Assembly (NCBI GenBank): GCA_963820525.1
Contig: CAWGAA010000001.1
Span: 1,184,001 to 1,248,000, forward strand
DNA: 64,000 bases
Reading direction: 5' to 3'
DNA from: an uncultured Spirochaetota bacterium
Lineage (GTDB): Bacteria > Spirochaetota > Spirochaetia > SZUA-6 > Fen-1364
In this document: in pieces, positions 37,246 to 53,433 of the stretch
How the letters are laid out: each line of letters starts with the position of its first letter
How positions within the stretch are numbered: position 1 is the first letter of the stretch
Notes under the pieces: generated by a model
Told to the model about the DNA's origin: nothing
Database searches by the model: none
Seen by the model: only the letters and a program-made list of their open reading frames with translations
Position numbers and translations under genes: made by a program

Positions 37246-38652
37246 TTACCGGCTGGATGCGGCTGCGTGCTCAATTGCTTCGAAGATTTTCTGATACCCG
37301 GTGCAGCGGCACAGGTTGCCTGTGATCGCCTGCCGTATTTGCTGCCGCGTCGGAGAAGAATTCTCTTCCAACAGTTGCGCGCCGCTCATGATCACCCCTG
37401 GTGTACAGTATCCGCATTGTACTGCGCCGGCTTCGACAAAAGCGCGCTGTACGGGGTGGAGTTCATTTTCTTGTTTCAAGCCCTCGATTGTAACGATGTT
37501 CGCATACTGCGCACGAGGGGCGGGCACCAGGCAGCTCATCACCGCAATGTCATCGAGCAAAACCGTGCATGCCCCGCATTCGCCTTCCGCGCAACCTTCC
37601 TTCGTGCCTGTCAATCCTATGTCCTCACGCAGCATCCGCAGCAGCGTCTTGGCGCCTGCGCCCTTGATATCATACGGCCTGCCGTTGACGGTCGTTTTAA
37701 TGGCATCTGTGCCGTCCGATTTTGAATCTATCTTTTTGAATTTTCCGTTCGTCTTGCCCCACAGCTTCACAGGATTTGCAGGAAAATCGGCGCCCTCGGT
37801 ACCGTCGCGTAACTGGCGTAGCGCGCGGGCAGTGTGCACTCTCACCATCTCGTAGCGATACTCCGCCGTGCCACGAATATCGTCAATCGGTCGAGCGGCA
37901 CGGCTCGCCAGATCCGCCGCAACGGCAATGGTCGCCTCATCGAGTGTTTTTCCCAATAAGAACTGTTGTGCATCGCTTGCGGCGGCAATCGTCGGCGCGA
38001 CGGAGCCTAGAGTGATGCGTGCACTCTCAATGCGTGAATCGCTGAATCCTAAGACAAGCGCGACATTCACCACGGAAATCGCCTGGGCGCGCCGCAGTCC
38101 AAACTTGATAAAGGTGCCGCGTTCGTTTTCTTTGAGAGCGGGGAAAGATATCTCGGTCAGCATTTCGTCGGACGCGAGCGTCGTCTGACGCACACCGCAT
38201 ATGAACTCGGGGAGCGGGATCTGACGCTCACCGCGTGCCTTGCTTGCCAGCGTTACCCCAGCTCCCATTGCCCACAACGGTGCAATCGTGTCATTCGCCG
38301 GCGACGCGGTGATGACATTGCCCGCGATCGTGCCGCGATTGCGGATCTGCGGAGCGCCTACCTCCCAACATGCGCGCACGAGCGGATATGCGCGTTCGCG
38401 CAGCAGCGGCGAGCCGATGACGTGATTGTGCGTGACGCTTGCGCCCACATGGAACGTACCGCCATCGAATCGGATTTCGTCCAATCCCTCGATGCGGCTT
38501 ACATCGATCATCACCTTCGGCGTGCGCACCTTGCGTTCCATCTCGATCAGCAAATCGGTACCGCCGTTGATGACTCGCGCATCTTTGCCGTACTCTGCTA
38601 AAAACTCCAGCGTCTCGTCGATGGATGTCGGTTGCACGTATTTTTCCCACAT
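37246..38652 (-). CDS. Xanthine dehydrogenase-family FAD-binding subunit fused to a C-terminal [2Fe-2S] subunit
   Basis: GGTDL, QIRNRGTIAGN, SPAND, IDDIRGT; then GTKEGCAEGECGAC and QCGYCTPG...CRCTGY. Confidence 0.9.
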   Translation of the reverse strand: MWEKYVQPTSIDETLEFLAEYGKDARVINGGTDLLIEMERKVRTPKVMIDVSRIEGLDEIRFDGGTFHVGASVTHNHVIGSPLLRERAYPLVRACWEVGAPQIRNRGTIAGNVITASPANDTIAPLWAMGAGVTLASKARGERQIPLPEFICGVRQTTLASDEMLTEISFPALKENERGTFIKFGLRRAQAISVVNVALVLGFSDSRIESARITLGSVAPTIAAASDAQQFLLGKTLDEATIAVAADLASRAARPIDDIRGTAEYRYEMVRVHTARALRQLRDGTEGADFPANPVKLWGKTNGKFKKIDSKSDGTDAIKTTVNGRPYDIKGAGAKTLLRMLREDIGLTGTKEGCAEGECGACTVLLDDIAVMSCLVPAPRAQYANIVTIEGLKQENELHPVQRAFVEAGAVQCGYCTPGVIMSGAQLLEENSSPTRQQIRQAITGNLCRCTGYQKIFEAIEHAAASSR

Positions 38653-38666
38653 AGGCTCCTCGGTTG

Positions 38667-40904
38667 TCATCTTTCATGCAGCGCCTTGAATACTTTTTCG
38701 GGCGTCGCCGGCAGTTCGTTGAGCCAGACCCCCGTCGCATCGTGAATCGCGGCAAGAATCGCGGGAGCAAGCGGCAAGAAAGGCAGCTCGCCCAAGCCAC
38801 GTGCGCCCCATGGTCCGCGCGGGTCGGGAACTTCGACGATTACGGATTCGACCACCTCGGGTACGTCAAGCGCGGTTGGAATGAGGTATGTACTGAGCTG
38901 GTCGGTAATCACACGACCGTCCTTCATCTGGAAATTTTCTTGCAGCGCGTAGCCCTGCGCTTGTGCGACCGCGCCTTCGATTTGTCCCTCAATCGCCTGT
39001 GAATTGATGGCTTTACCCACATCGTCCGCCGCGACGACACGCAGCAGGTGCACAAAACCGGTCCCGGTGTCAACCTGCACTTCGACGGCCTGCGCCGAGT
39101 AGGCGTAGGCAAAGTTCGGCGTCGAATAACCCGTCTCATTGTCGAAGGGCGTCGTTTGCGGCGCGAGATATGTGTACTCTGCGATGGCAGGACGTTCCTC
39201 CGCGCGCCATTTCTCCAGCGCGCTTTGTGCCGCGCCGCGAATTGCGTTACCCGCCATGAATGTGAGGCGCGACGCGGACGTACTGCCCGAATTGCCCATG
39301 CGCGCCGTGTCCGATGCGACGAGCATTACTTTGTCAAACGGCAGGCCAAGTGCCTCTGCCGCCATTTGCATTATCACCGTGTGCGCCCCCTGCCCGACAT
39401 CCGCGCCCGCGTGATACACGACCGCGCGCTCGATGTTACCGCCGCCATACAGTTCGACGCGCGTCCAGCAATTTTCTTGATAGCCGAAACTGAAACCGAT
39501 GTTCTTGAATCCTGCCGCAAAACCTATCCCGCGACGCATGACAGACGGCAGAGAGCCGGCACCATCCTCCTTTGTCTTTCGGCTTTCCTCGTCGGGGCAA
39601 TACCAGCCAGTCGGTGTCTGACGCCATCCCGCACGCCCCGCCGCTGAGCTAATCACATGAGCGATGCTGACGGGACCTGGCGGCGCGGTGCCGACGCCGA
39701 GCGTATCACCCTTGCGCAGCACGTTTCGCATCCTCAATTCAACAGGGTCCATGCCCAGCGCTCCAGCGAGCTTGTTCATCTGCATCTCGGCAAGGAAATT
39801 TCCCTGCGGCGCGCCAAACCCGCGAAAAGCGCAGGTGGGAATGTTGTTTGTGTATACGGCGTAGGTATCCACCTTGACATGAGGGATGAAATACGGACCC
39901 GTGCAGACAATTGTGGTGTTTCCGAGCACTTTGTTGCTGGTGAAGAGATATGCGCCAGCGTCCGCGACGATTTCCATTTCCGCGGCGACGAGTCTGCCCG
40001 CGCTGCTCGCTCCCCATTTGGCGCGGAGCGTCATCGGGTGGCGCTTGCCGTGCCCAATGATGGACTCGCGGCGGCTCCAGACTGTCTTCACGGGACGCCG
40101 CAGCTTCAGCGCCGCGAGCGCGAGCACGATCTGAACCGACATGTCTTCCCGTCCGCCGAATGCCCCGCCGATTACAGGATAGACCACACGTACCCGATCT
40201 TCGGGCACGCTGAGCGCGTGCGCGATCTGTTGCCGGTCCGTGTGAGCCCACTGCCCGGCGACCTCCACCGTCACGCGTCCTTCCTCATCAATGTACGCGA
40301 TGCCCGCTTCGGGTTGCAGGTACGCGTGCTCCTGAAACGGCAACAGGTACTCGCTTTCGATAATCACCTCGGCCTGCGCGAATCCTGCCGCAACATCGCC
40401 CTTGCGAATCTTGTAGCAAGCGCAAATGTTGCTATCACCTCGTTCCGGGTGGATAAGCTGCGCGCCGGGTTGCATCGCCGCAAGCGGGTCCGTCACAATG
40501 GGCAAGTCTACAAACTCGACCCTAATCAAATCCCGTGCGGCAGTCGCGGATTGCTCCGTTTCCGCAACGACAAGAGCGATCTTGTCGCCGACAAAACGCA
40601 CGATGTCGCTGCCCGGCTTGGCAGAACCAGGACCACACAACACGGGTTGGTCGGGTTGCTGCAAGCCGCACTCGTTGACGGGCACATCCTTCGCCGTGAA
40701 CACCTCGACCACTCCGGGGTATTTTTCCGCGCGGGATGTATCGAGTCGGAGGATGCGCGCGTGCGGACGCTCGGCAAACAGAGTCTTCATGTGCAGCATC
40801 CCCGGCATCGTGAGGTCGCCGGGATAAAGCGCCCGGCCGGTCACTTTGGCCATAGCGTCAACCCGGGCCACCGACTGACCGACAATATTCAGTGCAGGCG
40901 ACAT
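38667..40904 (-). CDS. Xanthine dehydrogenase-family molybdopterin-binding large subunit
   Basis: KVTG...PHA, GGAFGGRE, AFRGFGAPQ, VGQG, SASR, GQIEG, GARGLGE. Confidence 0.9.
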   Translation of the reverse strand: MSPALNIVGQSVARVDAMAKVTGRALYPGDLTMPGMLHMKTLFAERPHARILRLDTSRAEKYPGVVEVFTAKDVPVNECGLQQPDQPVLCGPGSAKPGSDIVRFVGDKIALVVAETEQSATAARDLIRVEFVDLPIVTDPLAAMQPGAQLIHPERGDSNICACYKIRKGDVAAGFAQAEVIIESEYLLPFQEHAYLQPEAGIAYIDEEGRVTVEVAGQWAHTDRQQIAHALSVPEDRVRVVYPVIGGAFGGREDMSVQIVLALAALKLRRPVKTVWSRRESIIGHGKRHPMTLRAKWGASSAGRLVAAEMEIVADAGAYLFTSNKVLGNTTIVCTGPYFIPHVKVDTYAVYTNNIPTCAFRGFGAPQGNFLAEMQMNKLAGALGMDPVELRMRNVLRKGDTLGVGTAPPGPVSIAHVISSAAGRAGWRQTPTGWYCPDEESRKTKEDGAGSLPSVMRRGIGFAAGFKNIGFSFGYQENCWTRVELYGGGNIERAVVYHAGADVGQGAHTVIMQMAAEALGLPFDKVMLVASDTARMGNSGSTSASRLTFMAGNAIRGAAQSALEKWRAEERPAIAEYTYLAPQTTPFDNETGYSTPNFAYAYSAQAVEVQVDTGTGFVHLLRVVAADDVGKAINSQAIEGQIEGAVAQAQGYALQENFQMKDGRVITDQLSTYLIPTALDVPEVVESVIVEVPDPRGPWGARGLGELPFLPLAPAILAAIHDATGVWLNELPATPEKVFKALHER

Positions 40905-40942
40905 TCTTTCCTCCGCTTCAGTTTCAGCTCGGCGTGTATATT

Positions 40943-43336
40943 CTATCCCTGGCGCTGCTTCAGCGCGTGCCACACACGCTCGGGCGTTGCGGGAATTTCA
41001 CGTAGGCGAACCCCCGTCGCGTCGTAGATTGCATTCACGACCGCGGGCGCTACGCCGTCGGTAGGAATTTCTGCAGCGGCTTTTGCTCCGAACGGTCCCG
41101 ATGGATCGCGCCCGGGCGCGATGAATCTCTCAATGGTCGGCATCTCGTTCGCTCGAAAAATGTAGTAATCGCGTAGATTGCCGTTGAGTAACCTGCCTTG
41201 CTCGTCGAACAGCATTTCCTCACACACACCGTAGCCGAGCGACATCGCAAGCCCGCCGTCAATCTGCCCCTCGACGCCCACCGGGTTGATGGGTTGTCCG
41301 CAATCGATGCCGAACACGAGTCTGTTCACGCGCACCTCGCCCGTCTGCATGTCCACCTCAACTTGAGCGAACTGGGCGGCGAATGGCGGTGCGTACATCA
41401 GCGACATATGCGAGTCCGCGGCTTGAATTTGATGTTGGTCGCGCACGTGCAGTGATTCGAGTGCAACCTCGCGAAGCGCAACGCTCCCGCCATCGGGCGC
41501 AATGACGCAGCCATCGGCAAGCCGCAGGATCCCGGGCTCACAGTCCAGCATTCGCCCCGCCACTTCCTTGATCATCCCCGCCACTTTTTCCGCCGCCTTC
41601 TTCACCGCCCCGCCTGAGACGAACGTCGTGGATGAGGCATATGCGCCTTTGTCGAAGGGCGTGAGGTCGGTGTCCGCCGCGTAGACCTGGATGTCGTCCA
41701 CGCGGCACCCCAGCACTTCGGCGGCGATCTGCGCAAGGACCGTATCCGCGCCCGTGCCCAGGTCCGTCGCCCCGAACATCAAGTTGAAGGAGCCGTCGTC
41801 GTTCATCTTGAGATACGCGCCGCCCATGTCAATCCCGGGGATGCCGCTGCCGTGAATCAGGGCCGCCATGCCGATACCGCGGCGAACGTGCGGGCGATCC
41901 GCAAGTACGTGCCAATCCGGATCGCGCCGTCTTTCCCACCCAATGAGATGCGCGCCGCGCTCGACGCACTGCGCGAGTGCCGTCGAGCGCAGAGGATTCG
42001 GAAAACCTTTGCGTCCTTCGCCCAACGCCTCGGCGAGCGCGAACGTATCGCCCACCTGCACCCAGTTGCGCCGCCGAAACTCGATGGGGTCGAGGCCTAA
42101 TTCACAGGCGATTTCGTCCATGTGCACTTCGAGCGCGAACAGACCCTGCGGCGCGCCATAGCCGCGCATTGCGCCCGCGGGAGGAAGATTCGTGTACACC
42201 ACATCCATCTCGAAGCGCAGGTTTTTGCAGCGATACAGAGCGAGAGTCTTCGATCCCGTGTTGCCCTGCACTGTCAGCGAATGCGAGCCATACGCTCCCG
42301 TGGCCGCCAAGAGCTTTAGCGTCATCGCCGTGATCGTTCCATCACGGCTCACGCCGGTCTTTAGGCGCAGGATTTGCGGATGACGACTGCGCGCGGAGTT
42401 GAACTCCTCCTCCCGCGAGTATTCCAGGCGCACGGGCTTGCCGGTAACCATGGTCAGGTACGCGCAGATGTCTTCGACCACGATTTCCTGCTTGCCGCCA
42501 AAGCCCCCGCCCAGGCGCGGCTTGAGCACGCGAATGCGTTTCTCGGACAGGCCGAGCACCGGCGCGAGGATGCGGCGCACGTGGAATGGGACTTGCGTCG
42601 CCGAGCGAATCACCAGGCGGTCGTCCTCGTCCCAGTACGTGATGCAGACGTGGGGCTCCAGCGCCACGTGCTGCACTTGCGGCACGCGATACTCGCCTTC
42701 GAACACACGATATGCTTCCGCGTACCCCGCCGCCAGATCGCCTGCCTCAGCCTCCATGTGCGCGGCGATGTTGCGCTGAGGAATGAATACCCCTTCAATG
42801 CCGGAGCAGTCCGGCTCGTCGTGGAGAATAGGCGCGCCGGCATTCAGCGCGTCTTGGGGTTTCATCACCGCGGGCAGTACCTCGTATTCGACCTCAATGA
42901 GCGCGAGAGCGCGCTGCGCGATCTCCTCCGTGTCCGCCGCCACCGCCGCGACGCGGTCACCGACAAAGCGCACTTTCTGATCGAGGACGAGCGAATCCAA
43001 CGGCGAGGGCAGCGGATATGATTGTCCCGCCGTCGTGAATCGCACGGGCCGGATGTCGCGGTGAGTCAGCACGGCGCGCACGCCGGGCAAGGCGCTGGCC
43101 TTGGATGCGTCAATCCGCTTTATGCGCGCGTGCGCGTGCGGGCTGTGCAGGATTTTGGCTTGCTGCATTCCGGGCAGCGTGAAATCGTCCGTGAATACGG
43201 GCTTGCCGAGCGCGAGCTTCACCGCGTCCACGCGCGGCACCGATGTGCCGACCACGCGGAACTGGCCGGGCGTGAGTCCTTCCGGATGCTCGCTCATCTT
43301 CAGCATCCGGTCCGGGTCATTATACGGGCGGGACAT
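40943..43336 (-). CDS. Xanthine dehydrogenase-family molybdopterin-binding large subunit (XdhD/YgfN-like)
   Basis: SPHAHA, TQVPF, GGGFGGKQ, AMRGYGAPQ, AYASSTT, GQIDGG, GAKAAAE. Confidence 0.9.
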   Translation of the reverse strand: MSRPYNDPDRMLKMSEHPEGLTPGQFRVVGTSVPRVDAVKLALGKPVFTDDFTLPGMQQAKILHSPHAHARIKRIDASKASALPGVRAVLTHRDIRPVRFTTAGQSYPLPSPLDSLVLDQKVRFVGDRVAAVAADTEEIAQRALALIEVEYEVLPAVMKPQDALNAGAPILHDEPDCSGIEGVFIPQRNIAAHMEAEAGDLAAGYAEAYRVFEGEYRVPQVQHVALEPHVCITYWDEDDRLVIRSATQVPFHVRRILAPVLGLSEKRIRVLKPRLGGGFGGKQEIVVEDICAYLTMVTGKPVRLEYSREEEFNSARSRHPQILRLKTGVSRDGTITAMTLKLLAATGAYGSHSLTVQGNTGSKTLALYRCKNLRFEMDVVYTNLPPAGAMRGYGAPQGLFALEVHMDEIACELGLDPIEFRRRNWVQVGDTFALAEALGEGRKGFPNPLRSTALAQCVERGAHLIGWERRRDPDWHVLADRPHVRRGIGMAALIHGSGIPGIDMGGAYLKMNDDGSFNLMFGATDLGTGADTVLAQIAAEVLGCRVDDIQVYAADTDLTPFDKGAYASSTTFVSGGAVKKAAEKVAGMIKEVAGRMLDCEPGILRLADGCVIAPDGGSVALREVALESLHVRDQHQIQAADSHMSLMYAPPFAAQFAQVEVDMQTGEVRVNRLVFGIDCGQPINPVGVEGQIDGGLAMSLGYGVCEEMLFDEQGRLLNGNLRDYYIFRANEMPTIERFIAPGRDPSGPFGAKAAAEIPTDGVAPAVVNAIYDATGVRLREIPATPERVWHALKQRQG

Positions 43337-43796
43337 GGCGTGCCTCCCCGTTCACCACGCGCATCACCGCTTCAACGGGCTTAACGTACCCCGTGCAGCG
43401 GCAGAGAACGCCGCCGAGCGCGTCGCGGACTTCCTCTTCGCTCGGGTGCGCATTCTCTTCGAGCAATGCTTTCGCGGCCAGAATCCGCGCCGGCGTGCAG
43501 TATCCGCACTGGATTGCCCCTGCTTCGACGAACGCGGCCTGCAGCGGATCCAGCCGTTCGCGAGAGCCCAAGGCTTCGATAGTCGTGATGCGCTTTCCAT
43601 CGGCTTGCGCGGCGAGCATGATGCAGCTATTGACCAGCTTGCCGTCCAGAATCACCGCGCATACCCCGCACATGCCGTCTTCGCAGCCATGCTTGACACC
43701 GTAGAAACCTTCGCGTCGAAGCACGTGCAGGAGGGTTTCGACGGGCTCGACGACCCATGTCAGCGGAACCCCGTTCACGTTCACATGGACTTCCAT
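43320..43796 (-). CDS. [2Fe-2S] small subunit, CoxS/XdhC-type
   Basis: GCEDGMCGVC, QCGYCTP, CRCTGY. Confidence 0.9.
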   Translation of the reverse strand: MEVHVNVNGVPLTWVVEPVETLLHVLRREGFYGVKHGCEDGMCGVCAVILDGKLVNSCIMLAAQADGKRITTIEALGSRERLDPLQAAFVEAGAIQCGYCTPARILAAKALLEENAHPSEEEVRDALGGVLCRCTGYVKPVEAVMRVVNGEARHVPPV

Positions 43797-44650
43797 TACA
43801 CAGCTCCTTGTGCGTTTGCCCAGGCTTGCGTGAGAGCGCGCTGCGCAATGACTGCGGCCATTTCGCGCCGGTACTGGCTGGACGCGCGGATATCCCCGAG
43901 TGGAGAGAGTGCTGCGGCAAATTGCTCGATCGCACGGGCTAAACGCTTCTCATCCCAGGCGTGTCCTACAAGTGCAGATTCGATGGACACGGCACGAATA
44001 ACCCGCGTGCCCACGCCGCCTACGGCCAGCCGCACGCGTGTGCATACCAGACCATCGGGGACGACCAGCGCCGCCGCGTTCACAATCGCCGTATCATTCG
44101 GCGTGCGCGCCACACGGACCAGCGCAGCGCCGAAAGGTTTCGCGGGAACCGGGATGCTCAGATCGATGAGAATGCCCGCGCCGAGACAATCGCCCGGCGC
44201 TTTCATGAACTTATCGAGGGCGGCAGTGCGTATCACCTTTGTCCGCATCGAAACGTGCGCGTCGAGCGCTAAAAACGTCGCAAGCAGATCGCACGCTGTT
44301 CCTCCTGAAATGATAGTGCCGCCAATGGTCGCTACGTTGCGGACGTTACGCGGCGCGCACACCCGTGCCGCCTCCGCCAGTATGCCGTTAGCAAAAGCCC
44401 GCGCCATTGGGTCAGACGCCAGCGCTTGAAGGGTAGTCATCGCACCGAGGCGTATCGGCCGTTCCTGCCATTCGATACCAGCGAGATCCAGCGCACTTAA
44501 ATCTACAACTGCGCGCACCGAATCGTTGCGCGATGGAATGAGTGCGGTGCCCCCCGCGAGTGGAACGGTATGAATCATGCTTCGCGCGAGTAGACGCAGC
44601 GCTTCGTTCAGCGTACTCGGGCGAAGATATTCTTCGAGGTTGGGCAGCAT
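43796..44650 (-). CDS. FAD-binding medium subunit (CoxM/YgfM-like)
   Basis: Y.RP.TL.EA, AGGT, RNVATIGG, DIRAS.YR. Confidence 0.85.
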   Translation of the reverse strand: MLPNLEEYLRPSTLNEALRLLARSMIHTVPLAGGTALIPSRNDSVRAVVDLSALDLAGIEWQERPIRLGAMTTLQALASDPMARAFANGILAEAARVCAPRNVRNVATIGGTIISGGTACDLLATFLALDAHVSMRTKVIRTAALDKFMKAPGDCLGAGILIDLSIPVPAKPFGAALVRVARTPNDTAIVNAAALVVPDGLVCTRVRLAVGGVGTRVIRAVSIESALVGHAWDEKRLARAIEQFAAALSPLGDIRASSQYRREMAAVIAQRALTQAWANAQGAV

Positions 44651-44677
44651 TTCACTCCACCTCCCTCACGTCGATAC
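44599..44677. repeat. Direct repeat copy 1: RBS and 5' end of the FAD-subunit gene
   Basis: Matches 45951-46029 with 4 mismatches counted by eye. Confidence 0.9.
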
Positions 44678-44724
44678 CTTCGAAAATAACATACGCCCCC
44701 ACCCGTGCCAATAGAGAGCCCTCT

Positions 44725-45309
44725 TCACTTCAACATGCCACCCATAATGACATCGATCACCTTTTCTTCTTCCAAGCCCCTCGCCATCAGCGTCTCCACC
44801 TGTTTCTGGTCCACCCTTCCAATTGCCGCCTCATGTTTAGCCTTGGCCAATTCATGCGTGACGCTAACCTTCGGAACAGCGGTCGCTTCCGCCCGGCCCT
44901 GGACTATCTCCACGCAATCCACATGCCCCCGTGCCCCGCGGGCACCAGCGGCAAGCTCGCTGACAATATCGCTTCTTGCCTCTCCCTTGACCGAGACCCG
45001 GCTTTTAATGAGGCCCCGTGCGTCTTCTCCCAGGAGATTGGCCGCCTCACGGATTCTGATCCGATCGGTGCCGGAGCCGTAGACTTTGGCCGTCATCTCC
45101 ATGGATGAACCTGCCAGCGCCTCAGTGTCGTAGTCCAAATCCAGCAGCCCCACCCTGCCGTGAAGCAGGGAAAAGTTCGTGACAAGACGGCTGTTATTTC
45201 CGATTCGGATTTTCGCTTTGGGAATGACCTCAATACCGCCTTTATCGCCGTAGAAATGTACTTCATTGTACGCGTAGGATGCTCTATTGCCCACTTCGAT
45301 CTCCGCGGC
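44725..45309 (-). pseudogene. 5'-truncated, diverged second copy of sufB/D
   Basis: AAEIEVGNRASY...GHVDCVEIVQG...HEAAIG...LMARGL is collinear with 46871-47455 (offset 2146) with many substitutions; the first ~115 codons are missing. Confidence 0.9.
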
Positions 45310-45950: not shown

Positions 45951-46029
45951 GCGCTTCGTTCAGCGTACTCGGGCGAAGGTATTCTTCGAGGTTGGGCAGC
46001 ATTTCACTCCACCTCACTCAAGTCGACAC
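45951..46029. repeat. Direct repeat copy 2: abortive start of the FAD-subunit gene (MLPNLEEYLRPSTLNEA)
   Basis: Near-identical to 44599-44677; homology ends after ~17 codons. Confidence 0.9.
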
Positions 46030-46065
46030 TCAAGACATTCACAGGCGTCCCCACCTGTGCCAACA

Positions 46066-46428
46066 TCAGCAGCACCCGGTTTTCCCGGCCAGGGAGGCGA
46101 AATCGAAGCCAAGCAAACGACTCAACTCGCCATTGACCCTCCGAAAGAAAATGCGAAGCTTTTCCTGGGCATCCAGATATGCGTTCACTTTTCCATTGAC
46201 CTTCCGCTGGATTTGCGAAATTTCCTCGAGATCGGTCACGGTGATGGCCCCTCTGACGTGCATTGCCTGGGTGGCCGTCTGGATACGCGCTTGCTTTTCC
46301 AGCAGTTGAAGCGCCTCTTCATCATCTTCAAGCCCCTCTCTTGCCTTGAGATACTCCTCAACCACTGGAGTCTGTCGCAATGCTTCCCCAAGAGCACGTG
46401 CCGATTGCTCAAGCTGAATGAGCGTCAT
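46066..46428 (-). CDS. YlbF/YmcA-like helical protein, C-terminus GKTGCC
   Basis: A..LGEAL.......Y..A...L..DEEA..L...YLDAQ..L.......N..L...LGFDF pattern. Confidence 0.7.
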   Translation of the reverse strand: MTLIQLEQSARALGEALRQTPVVEEYLKAREGLEDDEEALQLLEKQARIQTATQAMHVRGAITVTDLEEISQIQRKVNGKVNAYLDAQEKLRIFFRRVNGELSRLLGFDFASLAGKTGCC

Positions 46429-46437
46429 CTCACCACC

Positions 46438-46833
46438 TCACCCGCAACGGCTGCTCGCGCCATGCAGCGCGAAATCGATATCTAAAGCTTCGCTCAAGTG
46501 AACGTTCAAGACCTGGCACAAGGTGTGCAACTCACCCTCAGCTTCCAGATAGGAAGCGACGGCAGGCATCAGCCTGTAGGAGGCGGAGAGTTCCTGGAGC
46601 TTCTTCCGATGCACGGGAGCGGCGATGTTAAGCAGATTGCCGCCGCGTACCCGCGACTGCAGCTCTCGAATGCGCCGAGCGGTTGTCATGGCATGTTCGC
46701 CCTTCGCGATACCTGCCAGCGCCTCCTCCCATTCATGGAACTGCTGGGTTTCGAGCAGCATCTTCGCGAACGTATAGGCCGCTTCCCGCACGGCATCCGG
46801 GATGTCCCCCGATTCATTTTGGCTCATTCTCAT
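46438..46833 (-). CDS. YlbF/YmcA-like helical protein, C-terminus SSRCG
   Basis: AA..FA..L.ET..F...P.VASYLEAE..L......LN..LS..L.IDF. Confidence 0.6.
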   Translation of the reverse strand: MRMSQNESGDIPDAVREAAYTFAKMLLETQQFHEWEEALAGIAKGEHAMTTARRIRELQSRVRGGNLLNIAAPVHRKKLQELSASYRLMPAVASYLEAEGELHTLCQVLNVHLSEALDIDFALHGASSRCG

Positions 46834-46870
46834 ACTCCTTCAATGAAACGACCAACTGCGTGCGCCCCCT

Positions 46871-47806
46871 TCACTTCAGCATCCCGCCGATGACCAGGTC
46901 GATCGCCCTTTCCTCCTCCAGGCCCCTCGCCATCAGCGTTTCCACCTGTTTCTGGTCCACCCTTCCGATGGCCGCCTCGTGCGTGACCTTGGCCAGTTCA
47001 TGCGTGACACTGACCTTCGGAACGGCGGTCGCTTCCGCCCGACCCTGGACAATCTCCACGCAATCCACATGCCCCCTTGCCCCGCGGGCGCCGGCGGTGA
47101 GCTCGCTGACAATATCGCTTCTAGCCTCTCCCTTGACCGCGATCCGGCTTTTGATCAGGCCTCGGGAGCCTTCGCCTAGGAGATGGGCAGCTTCACGGAT
47201 CCTGATCCGATCCGTGCCGGAGCCGTAGACTTTGGCCGTCATCTCCATGGATGAGCCGGCCAGCACCTCCGTATCGTAGTCCAAATCGAGCAGTCCCACC
47301 CTGCCCTGGAGCAGGGAAAAGTTGGTGACCAGACGGCTGTTATTCCCGATACGGATCTTCGCCTTGGGAATGACTTCAATACCGCCGTCCTGGCCATGGA
47401 AATGAACCTCGTTGTACGTGTAGGAGGCCCTGTTGCCCACTTCGATCTCCGCGGCCATGCGGTGTACCACTTTCACGGCATTCGGAAAAACGCAGTGGGC
47501 AAGCAGCTCCACGCCGGAGCCATCCTGAATCTCGACATTCATCAGGATCTCCTGCACTCCCTCTTGAGGCATGACCCCAAAGCACAGGTGCACCGGCCGC
47601 TCGATTCGGACCCCCTTCTTGACGATCAGCCGCACCCGCACCCCCGATTCCGTTTCCACAGGCTCGAGAATCAGGCCATCCACAAGGTGACTCCCGATGA
47701 CCTTGTTTTTGTGGACGACCAGGTGGGCGATATTCGAATCCTTGAATGTCTCCGGCGTTCCTCCGGCCTGTGCGTAGGCGTCCAGCATGAGCTCATAGTC
47801 CTGCAT
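46871..47806 (-). CDS. sufB: SufB/SufD-family Fe-S scaffold (minimal SMS/SmsB-type)
   Basis: PVHLCFG, AHC.FPNA, YNEVH.HG, GHVDC.EI, VTHEAAIG, LMARGL; short archaeal/anaerobe-like form. Confidence 0.85.
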   Translation of the reverse strand: MQDYELMLDAYAQAGGTPETFKDSNIAHLVVHKNKVIGSHLVDGLILEPVETESGVRVRLIVKKGVRIERPVHLCFGVMPQEGVQEILMNVEIQDGSGVELLAHCVFPNAVKVVHRMAAEIEVGNRASYTYNEVHFHGQDGGIEVIPKAKIRIGNNSRLVTNFSLLQGRVGLLDLDYDTEVLAGSSMEMTAKVYGSGTDRIRIREAAHLLGEGSRGLIKSRIAVKGEARSDIVSELTAGARGARGHVDCVEIVQGRAEATAVPKVSVTHELAKVTHEAAIGRVDQKQVETLMARGLEEERAIDLVIGGMLK

Positions 47807-48566
47807 CAGGCCGACTCTCCTCACTCTGATGGCGCTCCTCCGCTTCGAAGACCCTTGTCGGGCAGGGGATGCATTTCTCCTTGAAATACCTCCCCACTTC
47901 GGGCGGCTTTCCCTCCTTCACGATGAGGCCGGAGCAGATGAGCGAGCTCCTGTCCGCTATCTCCGCCACTTCCTCTCGGTGGGTGATCAGGAGCACGGTG
48001 GTTCCCTGCTCCTTCAGCTCCTGGATCAAGAGGACTATATTGTCCAGGGCCAGAATATCGATCCCCGAGTCCGGCTCGTCCAAAATCGCCAGGCGCGGCT
48101 TCATGGCGAACACCGCCGCAAGCTCGATGCGCTTTCTTTCCCCGCCGCTCAGAGTTTTGTCCACCGGCCGCTGAAGGTAGTCCTTCGGCGTGAGCAGGAC
48201 TTTCTCCAACGCTTCCTCGACTCGGCCGGTACGGTCGGCGCCGATGCCGACGGAGATAAAGTCCCTCACGGTCAAACCTTCGAAACGGGCCGGCTCCTGC
48301 CACGCGAGAGTCATCCCCATCTTTGCCCGCTGGGAGATGGAAAGGCGCGTGATGTTCTTGTTCAGGAAGAAAATCGATCCACTCGTAAGGGCGTAGTCAT
48401 GGCAGCCCATGAGGGCTGCCGCGAGGCTGGATTTTCCGGCCGCGTTCGAGCCCAGGATCGAGTGCACGGTACCGGCTCTGACTGAGAGAGAAACCTCCTT
48501 CAGAATGGACCTTCCGTCTCGAACCAGAGAAATATGATCTGCGCGCAGCATCTCCGTCTTATCCAT
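47793..48566 (-). CDS. sufC: SufC-like ABC ATPase (SmsC-type)
   Basis: GSNAAGKSS, WQEPARFEG, LSGGERKRIE, LDEPDSGID, C-terminal CIPC; overlaps sufB. Confidence 0.85.
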   Translation of the reverse strand: MDKTEMLRADHISLVRDGRSILKEVSLSVRAGTVHSILGSNAAGKSSLAAALMGCHDYALTSGSIFFLNKNITRLSISQRAKMGMTLAWQEPARFEGLTVRDFISVGIGADRTGRVEEALEKVLLTPKDYLQRPVDKTLSGGERKRIELAAVFAMKPRLAILDEPDSGIDILALDNIVLLIQELKEQGTTVLLITHREEVAEIADRSSLICSGLIVKEGKPPEVGRYFKEKCIPCPTRVFEAEERHQSEESRPDAGL

Positions 48567-49197
48567 CGCGGTGTTCCACCTCTGCGCGCGGCAAATCGGG
48601 CGGAACCGTTTTCCCATCGTCGGAATCCCTGCCGGCCTCTGACCGTGCATCGAGATCTCGGGCCACGCGAATTGCCGTCTTGAGTATGACGTCAAGACGC
48701 GCGAGGCGTCCCCATCCCTCTCCGCCGCAGGCCATTTCCCCATACTCAGGCTCGACGAAATGGTAGCCGTAGGCTTTCAGCTTCCTGACATTATCCTGGA
48801 CGATGGGATTCAGCCACATGTTCTCGTTCATGGCGGGACAGATAATGACCGGCGCCTTCAGAGCCATGATGATGGTGGTGAGCATGTCGTCGGCTATGCC
48901 GCCCGCGACCTTGCCGATGAAGTTCCCCGTGGCTGGCGCCACCACGGCGAGGTCTGCAAATCGGGCGAGCACGATATGCTCGACGCGGGAATGATCCCCA
49001 TCCGCGAACATACCCACCGTGACCCGATGCCCCGAGATCGTCTCGAGAGTCAACGGTGGAATGAACTTTGTGGCCGCCTCCGTCATGATCACGCGCGTGT
49101 CGGCGAGCCGCGACCGGAACATGCCGATCAGGTCGGCAGCTTGGTAAGCGGCGATCCCTCCGGTAACACCGAGAAGGATGCGTTTCCCTGCAAGCAC
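48559..49197 (-). CDS. Stand-alone HFCD flavoprotein (phosphopantothenoylcysteine decarboxylase/CoaC-like, no CoaB domain)
   Basis: ILLGVTGGIAAY, HI.LA, APAT.N.I.K.A.GIAD, PAMNENMW, G.MACG..G.GR. Confidence 0.85.
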   Translation of the reverse strand: MLAGKRILLGVTGGIAAYQAADLIGMFRSRLADTRVIMTEAATKFIPPLTLETISGHRVTVGMFADGDHSRVEHIVLARFADLAVVAPATGNFIGKVAGGIADDMLTTIIMALKAPVIICPAMNENMWLNPIVQDNVRKLKAYGYHFVEPEYGEMACGGEGWGRLARLDVILKTAIRVARDLDARSEAGRDSDDGKTVPPDLPRAEVEHRDG

Positions 49198-49245: not shown

Positions 49246-49614
49246 TCAGCAGGCTGCCGCCGGAGCGGCGTTGGCGGCGAAGTCGAAGCCGAGAAGACTG
49301 CTCATGGCCTGGTTGCAGCTCCCCAGCAACTCCAGGGCTTCGTCCCGAGCAGTAACGAGCCGGACGTTCGCGGGATGGGTAGTGACCCTCTTGTACAGCG
49401 CGCGCAGCTTCGAGATATCTTCCTGGGAGTACGTTCCGTCGAACTGCTTGGTTCGAAACTCCTCGACCATCCGGGCGTGCTGGTCGAGCAAGGCCGACAA
49501 TTCCTCGTCACCCTCCATTGAAGCCTTCGCCTCCTTAAATGCAGAGACGACAGGGCTCGCCGCGAGCACACGCACGAACTCGTCGGCCGATTCTTGAAGT
49601 GTCGTATCGATCAT
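49246..49614 (-). CDS. YlbF/YmcA-like helical protein, C-terminus PAAAC
   Basis: A..F...L..SP....F..A......DEE...L...HP......A.......L..CN...S.LLGFDFA. Confidence 0.7.
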   Translation of the reverse strand: MIDTTLQESADEFVRVLAASPVVSAFKEAKASMEGDEELSALLDQHARMVEEFRTKQFDGTYSQEDISKLRALYKRVTTHPANVRLVTARDEALELLGSCNQAMSSLLGFDFAANAAPAAAC

Positions 49615-49626: not shown

Positions 49627-50031
49627 TTAACAGCAGCCGCCCGCCGGCTTGGTCATGTCTGCGAAATCGAAGCCGAGCGTCCCGGTGAGATAGTCGTTCA
49701 GATCCTTGAGGGCGACGAGGAGATCCTCCTGCGCCGCCATGTAACGCCTGTAGGTCGGGTGGGCGATCAGCTTTTTCTCCAGGCCTTGAAAACGGCCTTC
49801 GAAGCTTTTATCGCTGCCGCCCCAGCTCCATTTCATCTGTGCATCCCGCCGCGCGCTCTGATACACGCGAAACAGCTTTTGCGCATCCGCATCGGCGCGG
49901 AATACCATGGAGGCTGCTTCGAACTCCTTGTAGACATCCGACTCCGCCACCTTTCGCGCCAGGGCTTGAGCCGCCTCTTGAGCGGCACGGACCGTTGCAT
50001 TGTCCGTCTGATTCTGTTCCGTCTGTCGCAT
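49627..50031 (-). CDS. YlbF/YmcA-like helical protein, C-terminus PAGGCC
   Basis: A..LA..VAES..Y..F..A......D..AQ.L...HP....Y..AQE.L...L..LN..L...LGFDFA; GAGG RBS. Confidence 0.75.
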   Translation of the reverse strand: MRQTEQNQTDNATVRAAQEAAQALARKVAESDVYKEFEAASMVFRADADAQKLFRVYQSARRDAQMKWSWGGSDKSFEGRFQGLEKKLIAHPTYRRYMAAQEDLLVALKDLNDYLTGTLGFDFADMTKPAGGCC

Positions 50032-50050
50032 GATTTCCTCCTTCTGCTTC

Positions 50051-50401
50051 CTATGCGGCGGGCGTAACCGTGAGGCCGCGGGCCTCGAGAGCCTCGCGGA
50101 TGGTCCGCTCCGAGATTTTCCCTCCGCTTTGAACGATCTCATCATCCACGGTGATGATTGGTACGTGCGCGGATCCGTCCTGCACGCGGGCCATTACCTG
50201 CGAGAACTGAAAGAACCCGGGGGAGAAGAGCTGAATGAACTCGAACGCCACCTGGCTGCCGAAGCGGCCTGCAAGGCGCTGAAAGATCACATCGGCCGCG
50301 TTTTCCCATGTCTTGCCTCCCGCACACCCTGAGATCGGTGGGGCGAACACGCGCACCACCACCGGCCGGGAAGCCGCGCGCGCCTGCTGCGTGTCCGGCA
50401 T
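50051..50401 (-). CDS. Thioredoxin-fold hypothetical protein (YuzD/DUF1462-like), single Cys
   Basis: V.VF.PP..GC....W......L..RF...V.FEFI...P.ITVDDEIV..G; TGATG coupling to the zinc-ribbon gene. Confidence 0.5.
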   Translation of the reverse strand: MPDTQQARAASRPVVVRVFAPPISGCAGGKTWENAADVIFQRLAGRFGSQVAFEFIQLFSPGFFQFSQVMARVQDGSAHVPIITVDDEIVQSGGKISERTIREALEARGLTVTPAA

Positions 50402-50628
50402 CAGCAGCATCCCGCTCCGCTGCCGGGACCGCAGGCCGGCATTCCACCCAACCCTCCGGAGGAACCCGTCCTCGCGGAGGAGAGAATTCCGATCGTCCCG
50501 AAAACCTGCGTGGCCTTCTTCGAACCGCACGAGGGACACTCAGGGTGGAGTCCCGCCTCTTTTTCGGCTACCGACGCGGTGACGTCGAACATCATACCGC
50601 ACTCCTTGCACCGATACTCATACGTCAT
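50401..50628 (-). CDS. FmdB-family zinc ribbon protein, C-terminus ACGPGSGAGCC
   Basis: YEYRCKECG..F...CPSCGS. Confidence 0.85.
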   Translation of the reverse strand: MTYEYRCKECGMMFDVTASVAEKEAGLHPECPSCGSKKATQVFGTIGILSSARTGSSGGLGGMPACGPGSGAGCC

Positions 50629-50664: not shown

Positions 50665-52587
50665 TCAGCGTACGCTCGGCTCCGGTTCTTCCTGGAACAA
50701 CACATGCGCAGCGCGGCCCACCATTTCAAGACCGATGATCTCGGTCTCGAGGAGCGGCATGATCGCCACCGGGAGGCCGAAGCGCTTCCTGATCTCCGCG
50801 AGGTATTTCTCCTGCATGGCACGACGCTTTCTGAAGTAGTCATTCGTGCAATACTCGCGCGAGAGCACTTGATTGGTAATGACGAGCTGAGTCCCGATAC
50901 CGGCATCCCGCAGGTCGAGCATGGCGCGGTACGCTTCCACAACGGGGGTGGACTCGGGATAGACCACGAAGACGAAAACCGAACGCTCGGGATCCTTCAT
51001 CTGGGCGATGATGTGGTCGAAACGCTTCTGCATCTCGGACTTGGCTCCGGCTGAGGACGCGTTCGTGGTGACCATCAGCCCGATCTGATCGCTATAGTCA
51101 AAGGGCAGCTCGAGAAGCCGCAGCGTATGGCCGGTAGGCGCGGTGTCGAATATCACCACGTCGTACGCCTCCTGCTCCACGTACCCCATGAACTTGTCGA
51201 ATGCCGCCATCTCCTCCGTGCAGGGCGATTCAAGCTCTTCGCGCACCGCGGCAAGCATATCCTGCGAGTACTTCTTTTTCGCCTCCTCGATGATGCGCGC
51301 CTTGTATTCCAATACGGCCTTCTCCTGATCGATCATGACGGCCCACAGGTTTTCAACTCCCTCAACGGACTGGATTGTATCGTTCACGTCCTGGTTTAGC
51401 ACCTGACCGATGTGGGATGCCGGATCCGTGGTGAGAAGAAGCGTCCTGAGGCCACGCGCGGCGGTTGCGTATGCGGCGGCGCACGCCATGGTCGTCTTGC
51501 CGACTCCGCCCTTGCCGGTGAAGAACACCGCCTTCGATTTTCCGCTCACGGGCCGAAAGAGATCCATCAGCGATGCCGAATCGAGCGTCTCGAAGACCTT
51601 CGCTTCGGGGCTCACGACGCGCTCTGATGCCGCACCGATCCACGCGCCTCCCCTCTCCGACGAAAGACGGAAGCTCGGGGCATGCCCGTTTTCCGAAAAC
51701 AGATCGTTGGCGATATTGAGAAGACCCGGTATCCCTTTTATCTCACCGTCCCGCTGCAGCATCCGCCGGGTCGGGACGGGGAACTCCAGGGCGATGCGCG
51801 CGAGATACCCCTGCTGCATGTCGAATCGACTCTTGAAGAAGGGATGCTCGCATACTTCCTCCGGCAGAATTCCGTTCACGATGAGACTCACGTTCTTGAC
51901 GCCGATTGTGGCGAGTTCCGCCGAGGAACGTTTTGTCTCATAGAGCGAAGTCTCCTCGGGCTGAAGAACGAAGATGAAGTCGGTGCGCGCCGCGTCTCCC
52001 AGAAGGCGGGTCGCCTCGTCGTACTTCTTCTTGTTCTCCTGTATCGCCGCCACAGGGCCGATGCAGGTGTTGCCGCCGCCTTTGGCGCTCTCCTCGATGT
52101 GCTTGCTCCAATCGACGGGAAGCTCGAGCAGCCGTATCGTGTGCCCCGTGGGCGCGGTATCGAAGATGACCACATCGTAGGCTTTGTCACCATCGGTCGA
52201 TTCCTCGGTCATGAAGTCCACGAAGCGGTCGAATGAGGCGATCTCGGTGGTGCAGGGCGAGCGGAACTGCTCCTCCATCACTTTCATGACTTCCGCCGGC
52301 ATGACCGCCCGCATGGGCGCCAGGATGCGCTCGCGGTATTCCTCGGTGGCTTTGTCGGGGTCGATTTCCATGCCCCAAAGGTTGGGCAGGCCGAGAGGAC
52401 GAATTCGGTGGCCGATCTCCATCTCGAATACGTCTGCGAGGTTCGACGCAGGATCAGTGGTGACAATGAGCGTCCTTTTGCCCTGGCCGGCGGAGTGGAC
52501 CGCCGTGGCACAGGCCATGGTCGTCTTCCCGACTCCTCCTTTTCCCGAGAAGAACACGTAGCGGGTCTTGATGTTCCTTGATTTCAT
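50665..52587 (-). CDS. arsA: Arsenical pump-driving ATPase
   Basis: Two GKGGVGKTT P-loops, two DTAPTGH; metalloid-site Cys in SPCTTE, CIGP and SPCTEE. Confidence 0.95.
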   Translation of the reverse strand: MKSRNIKTRYVFFSGKGGVGKTTMACATAVHSAGQGKRTLIVTTDPASNLADVFEMEIGHRIRPLGLPNLWGMEIDPDKATEEYRERILAPMRAVMPAEVMKVMEEQFRSPCTTEIASFDRFVDFMTEESTDGDKAYDVVIFDTAPTGHTIRLLELPVDWSKHIEESAKGGGNTCIGPVAAIQENKKKYDEATRLLGDAARTDFIFVLQPEETSLYETKRSSAELATIGVKNVSLIVNGILPEEVCEHPFFKSRFDMQQGYLARIALEFPVPTRRMLQRDGEIKGIPGLLNIANDLFSENGHAPSFRLSSERGGAWIGAASERVVSPEAKVFETLDSASLMDLFRPVSGKSKAVFFTGKGGVGKTTMACAAAYATAARGLRTLLLTTDPASHIGQVLNQDVNDTIQSVEGVENLWAVMIDQEKAVLEYKARIIEEAKKKYSQDMLAAVREELESPCTEEMAAFDKFMGYVEQEAYDVVIFDTAPTGHTLRLLELPFDYSDQIGLMVTTNASSAGAKSEMQKRFDHIIAQMKDPERSVFVFVVYPESTPVVEAYRAMLDLRDAGIGTQLVITNQVLSREYCTNDYFRKRRAMQEKYLAEIRKRFGLPVAIMPLLETEIIGLEMVGRAAHVLFQEEPEPSVR

Positions 52588-52606
52588 GTGAGATTCCTTT
52601 CGTCTC

Positions 52607-52945
52607 CTACTCTGAAGCTACCGGTTGTTGTGCGTACTGAAGAAGCTCATCATAGGTGGGGAATTCCCTCGTTTTCACCACCCTGCCATTGACCGCGGTC
52701 ACCGGAAGCACGCCCGTGCTCTGCTCCTTCAGGAGCGCGAGAACATCCGGGTTCTGCATGAACTTCGCCCCCTGTTGCTGAAGCAGGTAGCGGTGTACCA
52801 CGATACCGTGGTTGTTCTTCATCTTCAGCACCGCCTCGTTCAGATCCAAGAGCGCCGGGTCGATGACCGGTCCGCAGAGGCCCCCGGGGCAGCACATGGG
52901 AGGATCGAAGATCTCGATAAGAACGTTCGTGTTCATGCGCGCCAT
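52607..52945 (-). CDS. arsD: Arsenic metallochaperone
   Basis: IFDPPMCCPGGLCGP, LP.T.VNG, PT..EL. Confidence 0.9.
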   Translation of the reverse strand: MARMNTNVLIEIFDPPMCCPGGLCGPVIDPALLDLNEAVLKMKNNHGIVVHRYLLQQQGAKFMQNPDVLALLKEQSTGVLPVTAVNGRVVKTREFPTYDELLQYAQQPVASE

Positions 52946-53361
52946 ACCCTCTCCTTTGTATGCATTCGTCCTCGCTCGAAACGTCTGGGGGACAACTTCC
53001 CTTCAGGAGGGAAACCCACAATGCACTTTCCATCCTCTCGGAGGCGGAGCCGCCTTTCCAACTGCTTTCGGTCCAGATCGAACGTCTCACTGGTGAGAAA
53101 AGCCTCAAGAAACTCAAACACTGTTGCGTTCGCATCGTTTTCTTTTTCCACCGAATGGTAAGCCCAGGTTCCTTCCTTTTCGACCTTCACAAGCTCCGCG
53201 TTTTTCAGAATGAGCAGATGCCGGGATACCTGGTATTGGGGAAGGCTCAGGGCATCCACCATCTCGCATACGCACAAGGGAACCTTCGCCGCGAGTAAAA
53301 TGTTCATCAAGCGGAGCCTGGTTTCATCGGCAAGGGCTTTCATCACCCGTGTTTGCTTCAT
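52933..53361 (-). CDS. arsR: ArsR/SmtB transcriptional repressor (CVC type)
   Basis: KALADETRL, LCVCEM, VSRHL..LK. Confidence 0.9.
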   Translation of the reverse strand: MKQTRVMKALADETRLRLMNILLAAKVPLCVCEMVDALSLPQYQVSRHLLILKNAELVKVEKEGTWAYHSVEKENDANATVFEFLEAFLTSETFDLDRKQLERRLRLREDGKCIVGFPPEGKLSPRRFERGRMHTKERVWRA

Positions 53362-53374
53362 ATGCCATTCCTTT

Positions 53375-53433
53375 ATATGCATGTATGCGTTTATTTACAT
53401 ATTTAAAATAGCATAATACTAGCCAACTGTCAA
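53375..53433 (-). promoter_or_regulatory. Sigma70 promoter and putative ArsR operator for the leftward operon
   Basis: TTGACA (53433-53428), 17 nt, TATTTT; imperfect palindrome ATATGCATGTAT-GCGT-TTATTTACATAT at 53375-53402. Confidence 0.65.

Follow-up and report, generated by a model that had tools for sequence, protein, structure and literature searches.

Proteins with a C-terminal pair of cysteines are already catalogued beside arsenic-resistance genes in haloarchaea, where plasmid-borne arsD-arsA-hcsL-hcsS genes overlap one another and lie divergent from arsR-acr3. HcsL (NF041416, 'halo-CC-star') is encoded behind arsD-arsA and ends in Cys-Cys, and HcsS (NF041415) ends in Cys, five residues, Cys-Cys. 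Other described systems with which a comparison can be made are the R773-type operon arsRDABC, the RicA (YmcA)/RicF (YlbF)/RicT complex of Bacillus, the SMS iron-sulfur (Fe-S) system of M. jannaschii, and the HFCD flavoproteins CoaC (phosphopantothenoylcysteine decarboxylase) and the lanthipeptide enzymes EpiD and MrsD, all three of which act on an acyl- or peptidyl-cysteine end. Here we analyse a related array in a 64,000-nucleotide stretch of DNA, hereafter the window, from an uncultured Spirochaetota bacterium (assembly GCA_963820525.1, contig CAWGAA010000001.1, positions 1,184,001 to 1,248,000; coordinates below are those of the window). Coordinates, translations and matches to Pfam and NCBIfam define 19 reading frames that run head to tail, all on the minus strand, from 53382 down to 37246. 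The gene list, order and single strand given for them in the initial annotation (arsR, arsD, arsA, a zinc ribbon, a thioredoxin fold, two ylbF genes, a coaC-like gene, sufC, sufB, two further ylbF genes, an insert and molybdenum hydroxylase genes) were all present as stated. Comparison with other genomes indicates that this 16 kb array is an ars operon made of modules that travel separately, and not one unit.

The part of the array that recurs is a core cassette of arsR-arsD-arsA, a zinc ribbon, an ArsD-like protein, two Cys-tailed YlbF proteins and a CoaC-like flavoprotein, which the neighbourhood comparisons place in arsenic islands of several phyla. On this evidence the joining of arsDA to Cys-tailed proteins and a CoaC-like enzyme is a real and recurrent association. 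Three search anchors were used, namely SmsB (the sufB product of the array), a profile of the tailed YlbF proteins, and the zinc ribbon. The zinc-ribbon survey covered 80 metagenome loci listed out of 167 confirmed matches, 30 with a Cys-Cys tail and 50 without. Among the matches listed, ars genes occur at 22 of the 30 tail-type loci and at none of the 50 tail-less ones, an ArsD-like gene lies directly upstream of the tail-type zinc ribbon in 16 of the 25 loci long enough to include it, YlbF genes come after the zinc ribbon in 10 of 22 loci of sufficient length, and SmsB is present in 4 of the 30. An exhaustive search with the tailed-YlbF profile, needed because a word-based homologue search with YlbF4 gave two proteins only, matched 3179 representative clusters at E ≤ 1e-3 and 798 at E ≤ 1e-10. 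A Cys falls within the last 12 residues in 145 of the best 149 sequences (44 end GCC and 30 end CCG), and about a dozen of these 149 are fused two-domain forms of ~260-270 aa. ArsR was present in every bacterial tailed-YlbF locus fetched, together with ArsP_1, Usp, ArsD or ArsA in most, and in several loci the YlbF genes are paired such that one partner ends in Cys-Cys and the other in a single Cys. The order ArsD-like, zinc ribbon, YlbF-CC, YlbF-C, flavoprotein after ArsR and ArsP_1 is repeated in L004/G402, L062+L118/G403, L122/G952, L126/G1053, L142, L150 and L157 (L, locus; G, genome); the high-GC loci L123-L125 have untidy frames and were counted only as ars genes plus YlbF or zinc-ribbon matches.

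In the window's phylum 73 of 401 genomes have YlbF-family matches, nearly all of them tail-less, and full-length tailed matches were confined to G000 and G210, with one stop-interrupted frame in G298; two other phyla, with 301 genomes each, contributed 5 and 2 genomes that have the tailed form, query genomes included. Colinearity of the complete array is confined to close relatives. A metagenome contig of ~79% nucleotide identity (L135) shares the gene order of the window from arsR through to the final molybdenum (Mo) gene, the insert excepted, and a genome of the same family (G1309) has the whole set except SmsCB, its Mo block standing directly after the flavoprotein gene; in the relatives L129 and L136 the array ends after the flavoprotein. 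Co-conservation, proposed at the outset as a check on the system, was thus found for the sub-cassette across distant lineages, and for the whole set no further than the close relatives L135 and G1309. Near-identical and ~95%-identical versions of the locus are present in contigs of four sequencing runs labelled freshwater sediment and wetland. The contigs of one run are without cover over 45515-46676, from which nothing is concluded, as contigs cannot show absence.

Judged by its genes, the locus is a genuine arsenic-resistance gene cluster. The ArsR-family repressor (52933-53382) carries a Cys-Val-Cys motif in its first helix region (Pfam HTH_5, 2.6e-10; NF033788, 78.4 bits against a cut-off of 55), the arsenite metallochaperone ArsD (52607-52945) has the Cys-Cys...Cys triad (NF033727, 97.8 bits; cut-off 90), and the two-domain ArsA ATPase of 640 aa (50665-52587) matches Pfam ArsA_ATPase in two stretches (3.7e-147). 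ArsA passes TIGR00345 (490.8 bits; cut-off 135) and falls below the equivalog TIGR04291 (503; cut-off 650), while its highest-scoring model, NF041417 ArsA_halo, is likewise matched under the cut-off (658; cut-off 800). It is 45% identical to, and equal in length with, the ArsA of a Halorubrum hcsLS operon, and three Cys positions are common to both in the alignment. The cysteines of ArsR, ArsD and ArsA are those which we take, from the R773 literature, to bind As(III). These three proteins and their metalloid cysteines are what the window shares with R773-type arsRDABC; it differs in having no ArsB and in having sixteen further genes after arsA, and its pumps, Acr3 and ArsP_1, are encoded on the other arm. 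That no pump follows arsA had been noted before, and none of the 19 frames is one; the genes for Acr3 (57808-58911) and for an ArsP_1 permease (55196-56506) belong to the divergent arm.

The placing of Acr3 on a divergent arm is shared with the haloarchaeal operons, as are the position and Cys-Cys end of HcsL, which are found in both YlbF1 and YlbF4 of the window. YlbF1 is 32% identical to HcsL. The four YlbF proteins score 61.2, 36.6, 24.2 and 44.5 bits on the HcsL model NF041416, all below the cut-off of 140, and the zinc ribbon gives no HcsS match at E ≤ 1. The window is further set apart by having four YlbF-like genes, a zinc ribbon in place of HcsS, and the ArsD-like, CoaC-like, SmsCB and Mo hydroxylase genes. 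By these scores its proteins are relatives of the halo-CC-star proteins, not members. The initial annotation knew of no description of such a combination, a statement that has to be narrowed, as the haloarchaeal arsDA-linked Cys-Cys-stop proteins are already named in the NCBI family library; our literature search found no paper on the HcsL/HcsS halo-CC-star proteins, VcpD, TsoR, YlbF with arsenite or arsenic, or SufB with an ars operon. Single HcsL-like genes with Gly/Cys-rich tails, scoring 93-99 bits on the halo model, are also present in three ~1 Mb archaeal bins (L119, L120, L121); one of them adjoins an ArsR-family gene, and no ArsA was seen in the stretches fetched.

The first of the Cys-tailed products is an FmdB-type zinc-ribbon protein (50401-50628; Zn_ribbon_8, 4.7e-10) in which a Gly/Ser linker leads to the tail C-x7-CC-stop (GCC-stop), a feature kept in the alignment. 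It is followed by a 120-aa ArsD-like thioredoxin-fold protein (50051-50410) that falls in no family. Its predicted model (predicted local distance difference test score, pLDDT, 77) was fitted best by ArsD 3kgk in a Foldseek search (template modelling score 0.69, target-normalised), with further matches to ArsD 3mwh and to thioredoxins. Aligned relatives carry a triad of Cys, five residues, Cys-Cys, and weakly match NF047871 VcpD. The four YlbF-like proteins all exceed 23.9 bits on Pfam Com_YlbF. YlbF1 (49627-50031; 2.3e-15), the HcsL relative, ends GCC-stop, YlbF2 (49246-49614; 1.4e-13) ends AAC-stop, YlbF3 (46438-46833; 2.1e-08) ends RCG and YlbF4 (46066-46428; 8e-13) ends GCC-stop; the last two are absent from L135 and G1309. 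The earlier description of these proteins as Cys-tailed therefore applies in its Cys-Cys form to YlbF1 and YlbF4, and not to YlbF2, with its single Cys, or to YlbF3. In G210, two YlbF-like genes with 4-5 Cys in longer tails (L103 18285-19598) stand directly before a Cys-Val-Cys ArsR; next come a tandem Usp and a Na/Pi cotransporter that carries PhoU domains.

YlbF1 and YlbF2 are predicted to form a heterodimer. Their complex model scored 0.72 against 0.00 for the best control, a value attained by 116 of 157 solved complexes and by 2 of 215 mismatched pairs. The model runs agreed in at least 94% of contacts with partner pLDDT of at least 87, and the interface includes YlbF1 residues 133-134 and YlbF2 residue 122, and thus both C-terminal tails. 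A solved complex of Bacillus YlbF relatives exists, and likeness to it may explain why the model passes. The Bacillus RicA/RicF/RicT complex has in common with the window pair the Pfam family and a heterodimer, here a predicted one. Ordinary YlbF members found in the window's phylum lack the tail, however, and the context in the window is arsenic whereas that of the Ric complex is RNA processing; the single PSP1 (RicT-like) gene of the genome lies on contig C2, unlinked to the operon.

The CoaC-like (HFCD) flavoprotein (48559-49197; Pfam Flavoprotein, 7.8e-30) is a stand-alone protein. It falls below the CoaC/CoaBC equivalog cut-offs (TIGR00521, 199.1 bits against 219.7; TIGR02113, 168 against 261.4) and far below the CypD/LanD model for ribosomally synthesised and post-translationally modified peptides (NF033753, 22 against 215), and its closest solved relative in a PDB search is CoaBC 6tgv (6.6e-34), MrsD and EpiD being weaker. 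Because a housekeeping CoaBC-length frame is present elsewhere in the genome (C1:2174188), the flavoprotein is read as a CoaC paralogue, and a role as the cell's sole CoaC is ruled out. From CoaC, EpiD and MrsD, whose fold family it shares, it differs in standing alone without CoaB and in its proposed substrates, which are folded proteins of 75-135 aa and neither a metabolite nor a ribosomal peptide. The presence of the flavoprotein follows the last residue of the zinc ribbon: it was found in 9 of 9 loci whose zinc ribbon has a terminal Cys, against 0 of 12 loci (with at least 1.8 kb downstream) that have a CCG, CCS or similar end, giving 3.4e-6 in Fisher's test, a value that is not corrected for kinship and in which 6 of the 9 positives form one clade. 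Four species-genome loci agree with the pattern, three having terminal Cys and flavoprotein and the fourth being that of G952. In this last genome (L122, 9705-11630) an extra Arg stands behind the Cys-Cys of the zinc-ribbon tail, and the flavoprotein match is shared between two frames of 51 and 133 aa, which reflects either decay of the pair or an assembly error. The co-occurrence with terminal Cys is the best support for the Cys decarboxylase suggested in the initial annotation. It is conceivable, though we hold it as a doubtful proposal, that the flavoenzyme decarboxylates the C-terminal Cys of the folded zinc ribbon and YlbF pair so as to leave a carboxylate-free thiol end in three-sulfur arsenite sites. 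To our knowledge, Cys decarboxylation of this kind is so far known only for the coenzyme A precursor and ribosomal peptide antibiotics.

Downstream lies the pair that had been called a minimal Suf system. The pair is there, and its identity is SmsCB: the SufB/D-like scaffold of 311 aa (SmsB, 46871-47824) matches MJ0034 (PDB 9h78) at E 2.1e-64, and is paired with an adjacent SufC-like ABC ATPase (SmsC, 47793-48566; ABC_tran; TIGR01978, 162.7 bits against 212.8) bearing a C-terminal CxxC. The operon has no desulfurase and is without SufD, SufS and SufE. MJ0034 is the SmsB of the M. jannaschii SMS system, and SmsCB is described as a sulfide-using Fe-S scaffold whose cluster is sited at the C-terminal cysteines of SmsC, a C-terminal CxxC being present in most archaeal SmsC; that paper states that no carrier is known for SmsCB, and the stem 'arsen' occurs in it 0 times (PMC12192291). 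The window pair thus shares the SmsB match and the CxxC with the SMS system and differs in being a second system beside SUF, in an arsenic island. A canonical SUF operon lies on another contig of the genome and two NifU-type genes lie elsewhere, for which reason we read SmsCB as an accessory copy; as the cell's sole Fe-S system it is ruled out by the SUF operon.

SmsB belongs to a very large family, with 4065 of 8000 scored candidates matching at E ≤ 1e-5. Among 62 SmsB loci from species genomes, 58 have the SufC partner and 18 have ars genes (Acr3, ArsP_1, ArsE-type thioredoxin, ArsD/A or ArsC-type phosphatase), or 20 if a lone DUF6951 or lone flavoprotein is counted; five loci without ars genes were inspected and have redox or housekeeping surroundings. 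Only L004 also has the YlbF pair, flavoprotein and Mo hydroxylases, and L020 combines ArsD, an IscA-like protein ending CCG, ArsA and SmsCB. The 311-aa SmsB, which has SmsC beside it, keeps 60-72% identity among Omnitrophota, Actinomycetota, Elusimicrobia, Caldisericota and archaeal bins (L001-L062), and this identity across phyla, taken with the 18 of 62 loci in arsenic islands, suggests lateral spread with the islands. By these counts SmsCB is a frequent passenger of arsenic islands. Two unrelated bins (L020 7433-7726, L126 580-882) encode IscA/HesB-type proteins ending Cys-Cys-Gly next to arsD and arsA or in the space between these genes. A further arrangement concerns the slot after SmsCB and a small CMD/AhpD-like protein, which holds an aldehyde:ferredoxin oxidoreductase and a ThiS/MoaD-like protein in L145 (2657-6463) and a xanthine-oxidase-family subunit in L004 (10969-14457), an arsenite methyltransferase coming next in both.

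The array closes with two Mo hydroxylases. The first comprises an FAD subunit (43796-44650; FAD_binding_5, CO_deh_flav_C), a 2Fe-2S subunit (43320-43796; Fer2_2, Fer2) and Mo subunit 1 of the xanthine-oxidase family (40943-43336; MoCoBD_1/2, Ald_Xan_dh_C), and the second Mo subunit 2 (38667-40973) and a fused FAD/2Fe-2S subunit (37246-38670), both assigned by Pfam and NCBIfam. Their Pfam content, a hammerhead and two MoCo-binding domains with FAD and 2Fe-2S partners, is that of the xanthine-oxidase family, and they score under every substrate-specific NCBIfam equivalog cut-off, just below those for xanthine and purine dehydrogenase. A 90% orthologue of Mo subunit 1 was found in 1 of 60 relatives (G1309). 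Mo hydroxylases occur in 1 of the 30 tail-type metagenome loci listed (L135) and 2 of the 62 SmsB loci, and those of L004 are only 36-39% identical to the window's; unrelated pterin enzymes share the neighbourhood in a few other loci (L004, L018, L145). We infer that the Mo hydroxylases are a lineage-specific add-on outside the conserved machinery, and these low counts leave unsupported the earlier ideas that repair of Mo enzymes, or transformation carried out by them, belongs to the system.

The insert of the initial annotation, placed after ylbF4 and ahead of the Mo genes, is present and has the nature of a recombination scar, as seen from DNA repeats and the comparison with L135. It includes an RseC/MucC-family small membrane protein (45408-45854; RseC_MucC, 2e-18) and a 5'-truncated smsB duplicate (44725-45390; SUFBD_core) that matches residues 113-317 and is 85% identical to SmsB in amino acids over 210 residues. 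In the DNA the 3' part of sufB is present twice (46864-47163 and 44718-45017, 87%). Likewise, a 113-nt segment (44599-44711) that runs from upstream of the FAD-subunit gene into its first 52 nt has a remnant copy, also 87% identical and a direct repeat, right after ylbF4 (45951-46063). L135 is without the insert, and the one sufB 3' end that it has can be aligned with each of the two copies in the window, from which it follows that the window has ~1.6 kb extra (ylbF3, ylbF4, remnant and rseC) and a 580-nt duplication. In L158, too, a protein of the RseC/MucC family comes after SmsCB and the zinc ribbon.

Upstream of arsR, a promoter-like site TTGACA-17-TATTTT (minus strand, 53405-53433) matches 10 of 12 positions. 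The initial annotation had placed a palindrome with it; the site stands, and no palindrome was found there by the repeat tool (seed 6, minimum length 10). The only palindrome found near the two promoters is an inverted repeat at 53628-53657, which lies at the divergent plus-strand promoter and overlaps its -35 box. A second promoter-like site lies at 44711-44683, between ylbF4 and the Mo genes. The promoter scan as a whole was at chance level (7 sites versus 5.2 +/- 2.4 in shuffles), the terminator scan was likewise not above shuffles, and both were used only to place the site named earlier. The short gaps and overlaps reported for the array hold from arsR to ylbF4 (at most 48 nt) and not beyond, where a 211-nt gap follows ylbF4 and a 74-nt gap precedes the FAD gene.

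The divergent arm (plus strand, 53687-61539) encodes ArsR2, tandem Usp, the ArsP_1 permease, an ArsE-type thioredoxin, a small ferredoxin, a 158-aa protein without an assigned family, Acr3, DUF6951, an ArsF-family protein, DsbD_2 and a second ArsP_1 permease whose coding sequence is divided between two genes of half size (60473-60982 and 60979-61539). By its gene content it reads like an organoarsenical set plus a pump, and it is largely kept beside the operon in G1309 (ArsR2, ArsE-type thioredoxin, ferredoxins, Acr3, ArsP_1 permease). On the minus strand ~11 kb from the operon, an ArsC-type low-molecular-weight phosphatase gene lies beside a chromate transporter gene (24425-26126).

The reading we prefer, to which we give about an even chance, is that of an arsenite-responsive modular ars operon in which As(III)-binding tails are matured by decarboxylation and accompanied by back-up Fe-S assembly. 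As(III) would release ArsR from the promoter, and ArsD and ArsA would serve the Acr3 pump of the divergent arm. Three thiolates are the ligand set of As(III) in ArsR, ArsD and ArsA. The zinc ribbon, with three Cys in one flexible tail, could form such a site, and each YlbF heterodimer could form another from the Cys-Cys of one partner and the single Cys of the other; it is because the tail Cys come in threes, matching this ligand set, that the cassette is read as a group of As(III) holders. The sites may hold or buffer As(III), or pass it to ArsD/ArsA or the permease. The CoaC-like flavoenzyme would remove the carboxylate of the last tail Cys to leave a cysteamine-like or enethiol end, and SmsCB would be a second, sulfide-using assembly line that rebuilds Fe-S clusters under arsenic stress. 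The two Mo hydroxylases, dependent on Fe-S clusters and molybdenum cofactor, would be lineage cargo transcribed with or just behind the operon.

Several observations weigh against this reading. The window copy of the ArsD-like protein retains one Cys of the triad, two of the three being lost in the alignment, and the translation of YlbF3 ends in Cys-Gly. Since the flavoprotein is in every case accompanied by the YlbF pair, action on the zinc ribbon cannot be told apart from action on YlbF. In haloarchaea no CoaC-like gene lies close to those for the Cys-Cys-ending HcsL and HcsS, so that decarboxylation cannot be required everywhere, and L161 encodes two YlbF proteins with a terminal Cys but lacks the flavoprotein. 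The enzyme resembles CoaC more than it does the peptide decarboxylases, which leaves room for an ordinary part in making coenzyme A. The Mo genes may form a separate transcript, as the stretch between ylbF4 and them contains the 211-nt gap, a fragment of a gene and a promoter-like sequence. Finally, Fe-S assembly genes (SmsCB, NifS/NifU, IscA-like) adjoin the cassette in many loci, which fits an Fe-S function equally.

Such a function, in which the Cys-tailed YlbF proteins and zinc ribbon are Fe-S carriers or assembly helpers for SmsCB or NifS/NifU, so that Fe-S enzymes including the Mo hydroxylases are rebuilt under arsenite, strikes us as unlikely though deserving of serious attention. The YlbF proteins belong to Pfam Com_YlbF, and Bacillus RicA and RicF ligate a cluster with their tails. 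SmsCB, NifS/NifU or IscA-like (CCG) genes stand beside the cassette in the window, L135, L004, L118, L157, L161, L145, L146, L158, L020 and L126; NifS/NifU come after it in L118, L157 and L161, and behind the zinc ribbon stand NifU in L146 and the start of NifS in L159. In the window ylbF3 and ylbF4 come directly after smsB, and the SMS paper (PMC12192291) gives no known carrier for SmsCB. Against this, it is arsenic genes that are the constant companion of the cassette; no Fe-S assembly gene is in reach in haloarchaeal arsDA-hcsLS, L136, L142 and L150, and SmsB is found in just 4 of the 30 tail-type loci listed. The ArsD-like neighbour and the arithmetic of three Cys suit As(III) better than a four-ligand cluster, and the RicT-like PSP1 gene is on another contig.

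The Mo hydroxylases invite a different view, that of one integrated arsenic-transformation pathway in which carriers would deliver a trivalent arsenical to these enzymes for oxidation with oxygen taken from water, making the route an anaerobic equivalent of oxygen-dependent detoxification; alternatively, the enzymes would reduce a pentavalent arsenical. Mo genes do follow the cassette in three related genomes, the window's included, despite different intervening genes; L004 has SmsCB-CMD-Mo hydroxylase-arsenite methyltransferase, L145 has SmsCB-CMD-ThiS-aldehyde:ferredoxin oxidoreductase-methyltransferase with an unrelated pterin enzyme in the same slot, and L018 has a Mo hydroxylase set beside ars genes and SmsCB. 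We nonetheless think it very improbable, given their rarity at the tail-type loci listed and at SmsB loci, the low identity of the L004 enzymes to the window's and the near-threshold scores of the latter for xanthine and purine dehydrogenase. We also know of no member of the xanthine-oxidase-type Mo hydroxylase family that turns over arsenicals. Conversely, arsR-arsD-arsA might be the sole arsenic unit, with unrelated housekeeping genes that merely point the same way downstream. The promoter and terminator scans are uninformative on this, the array does contain a recombination scar and the 211-nt gap, and SmsCB stands in ordinary redox or housekeeping surroundings in many lineages. We consider this very improbable, however, because the frames from arsR to ylbF4 overlap or lie within 48 nt of each other, tail-type zinc ribbons are associated with ars genes at 22 of 30 listed loci as against 0 of 50 for tail-less ones, the haloarchaeal genes overlap arsA, and separate housekeeping CoaBC and SUF are present in the genome.

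Arsenic resistance is among the best-studied detoxification systems, yet a cassette of four to five genes without published function stands in ars islands of numerous anaerobes that are uncultured, haloarchaea having a reduced form of it. If its tails do bind arsenite, they would constitute a new metallochaperone layer beside ArsD, and may help to explain how ArsA works where ArsB is missing. Should the flavoprotein trim the last Cys, this would be a new protein modification, dedicated to metalloid handling in widespread arsenic islands of anaerobes. The presence of SmsCB in arsenic islands (18 of 62 loci) suggests that Fe-S cluster assembly is a main target of arsenite in anaerobes, and that it is countered there by a mobile back-up scaffold.

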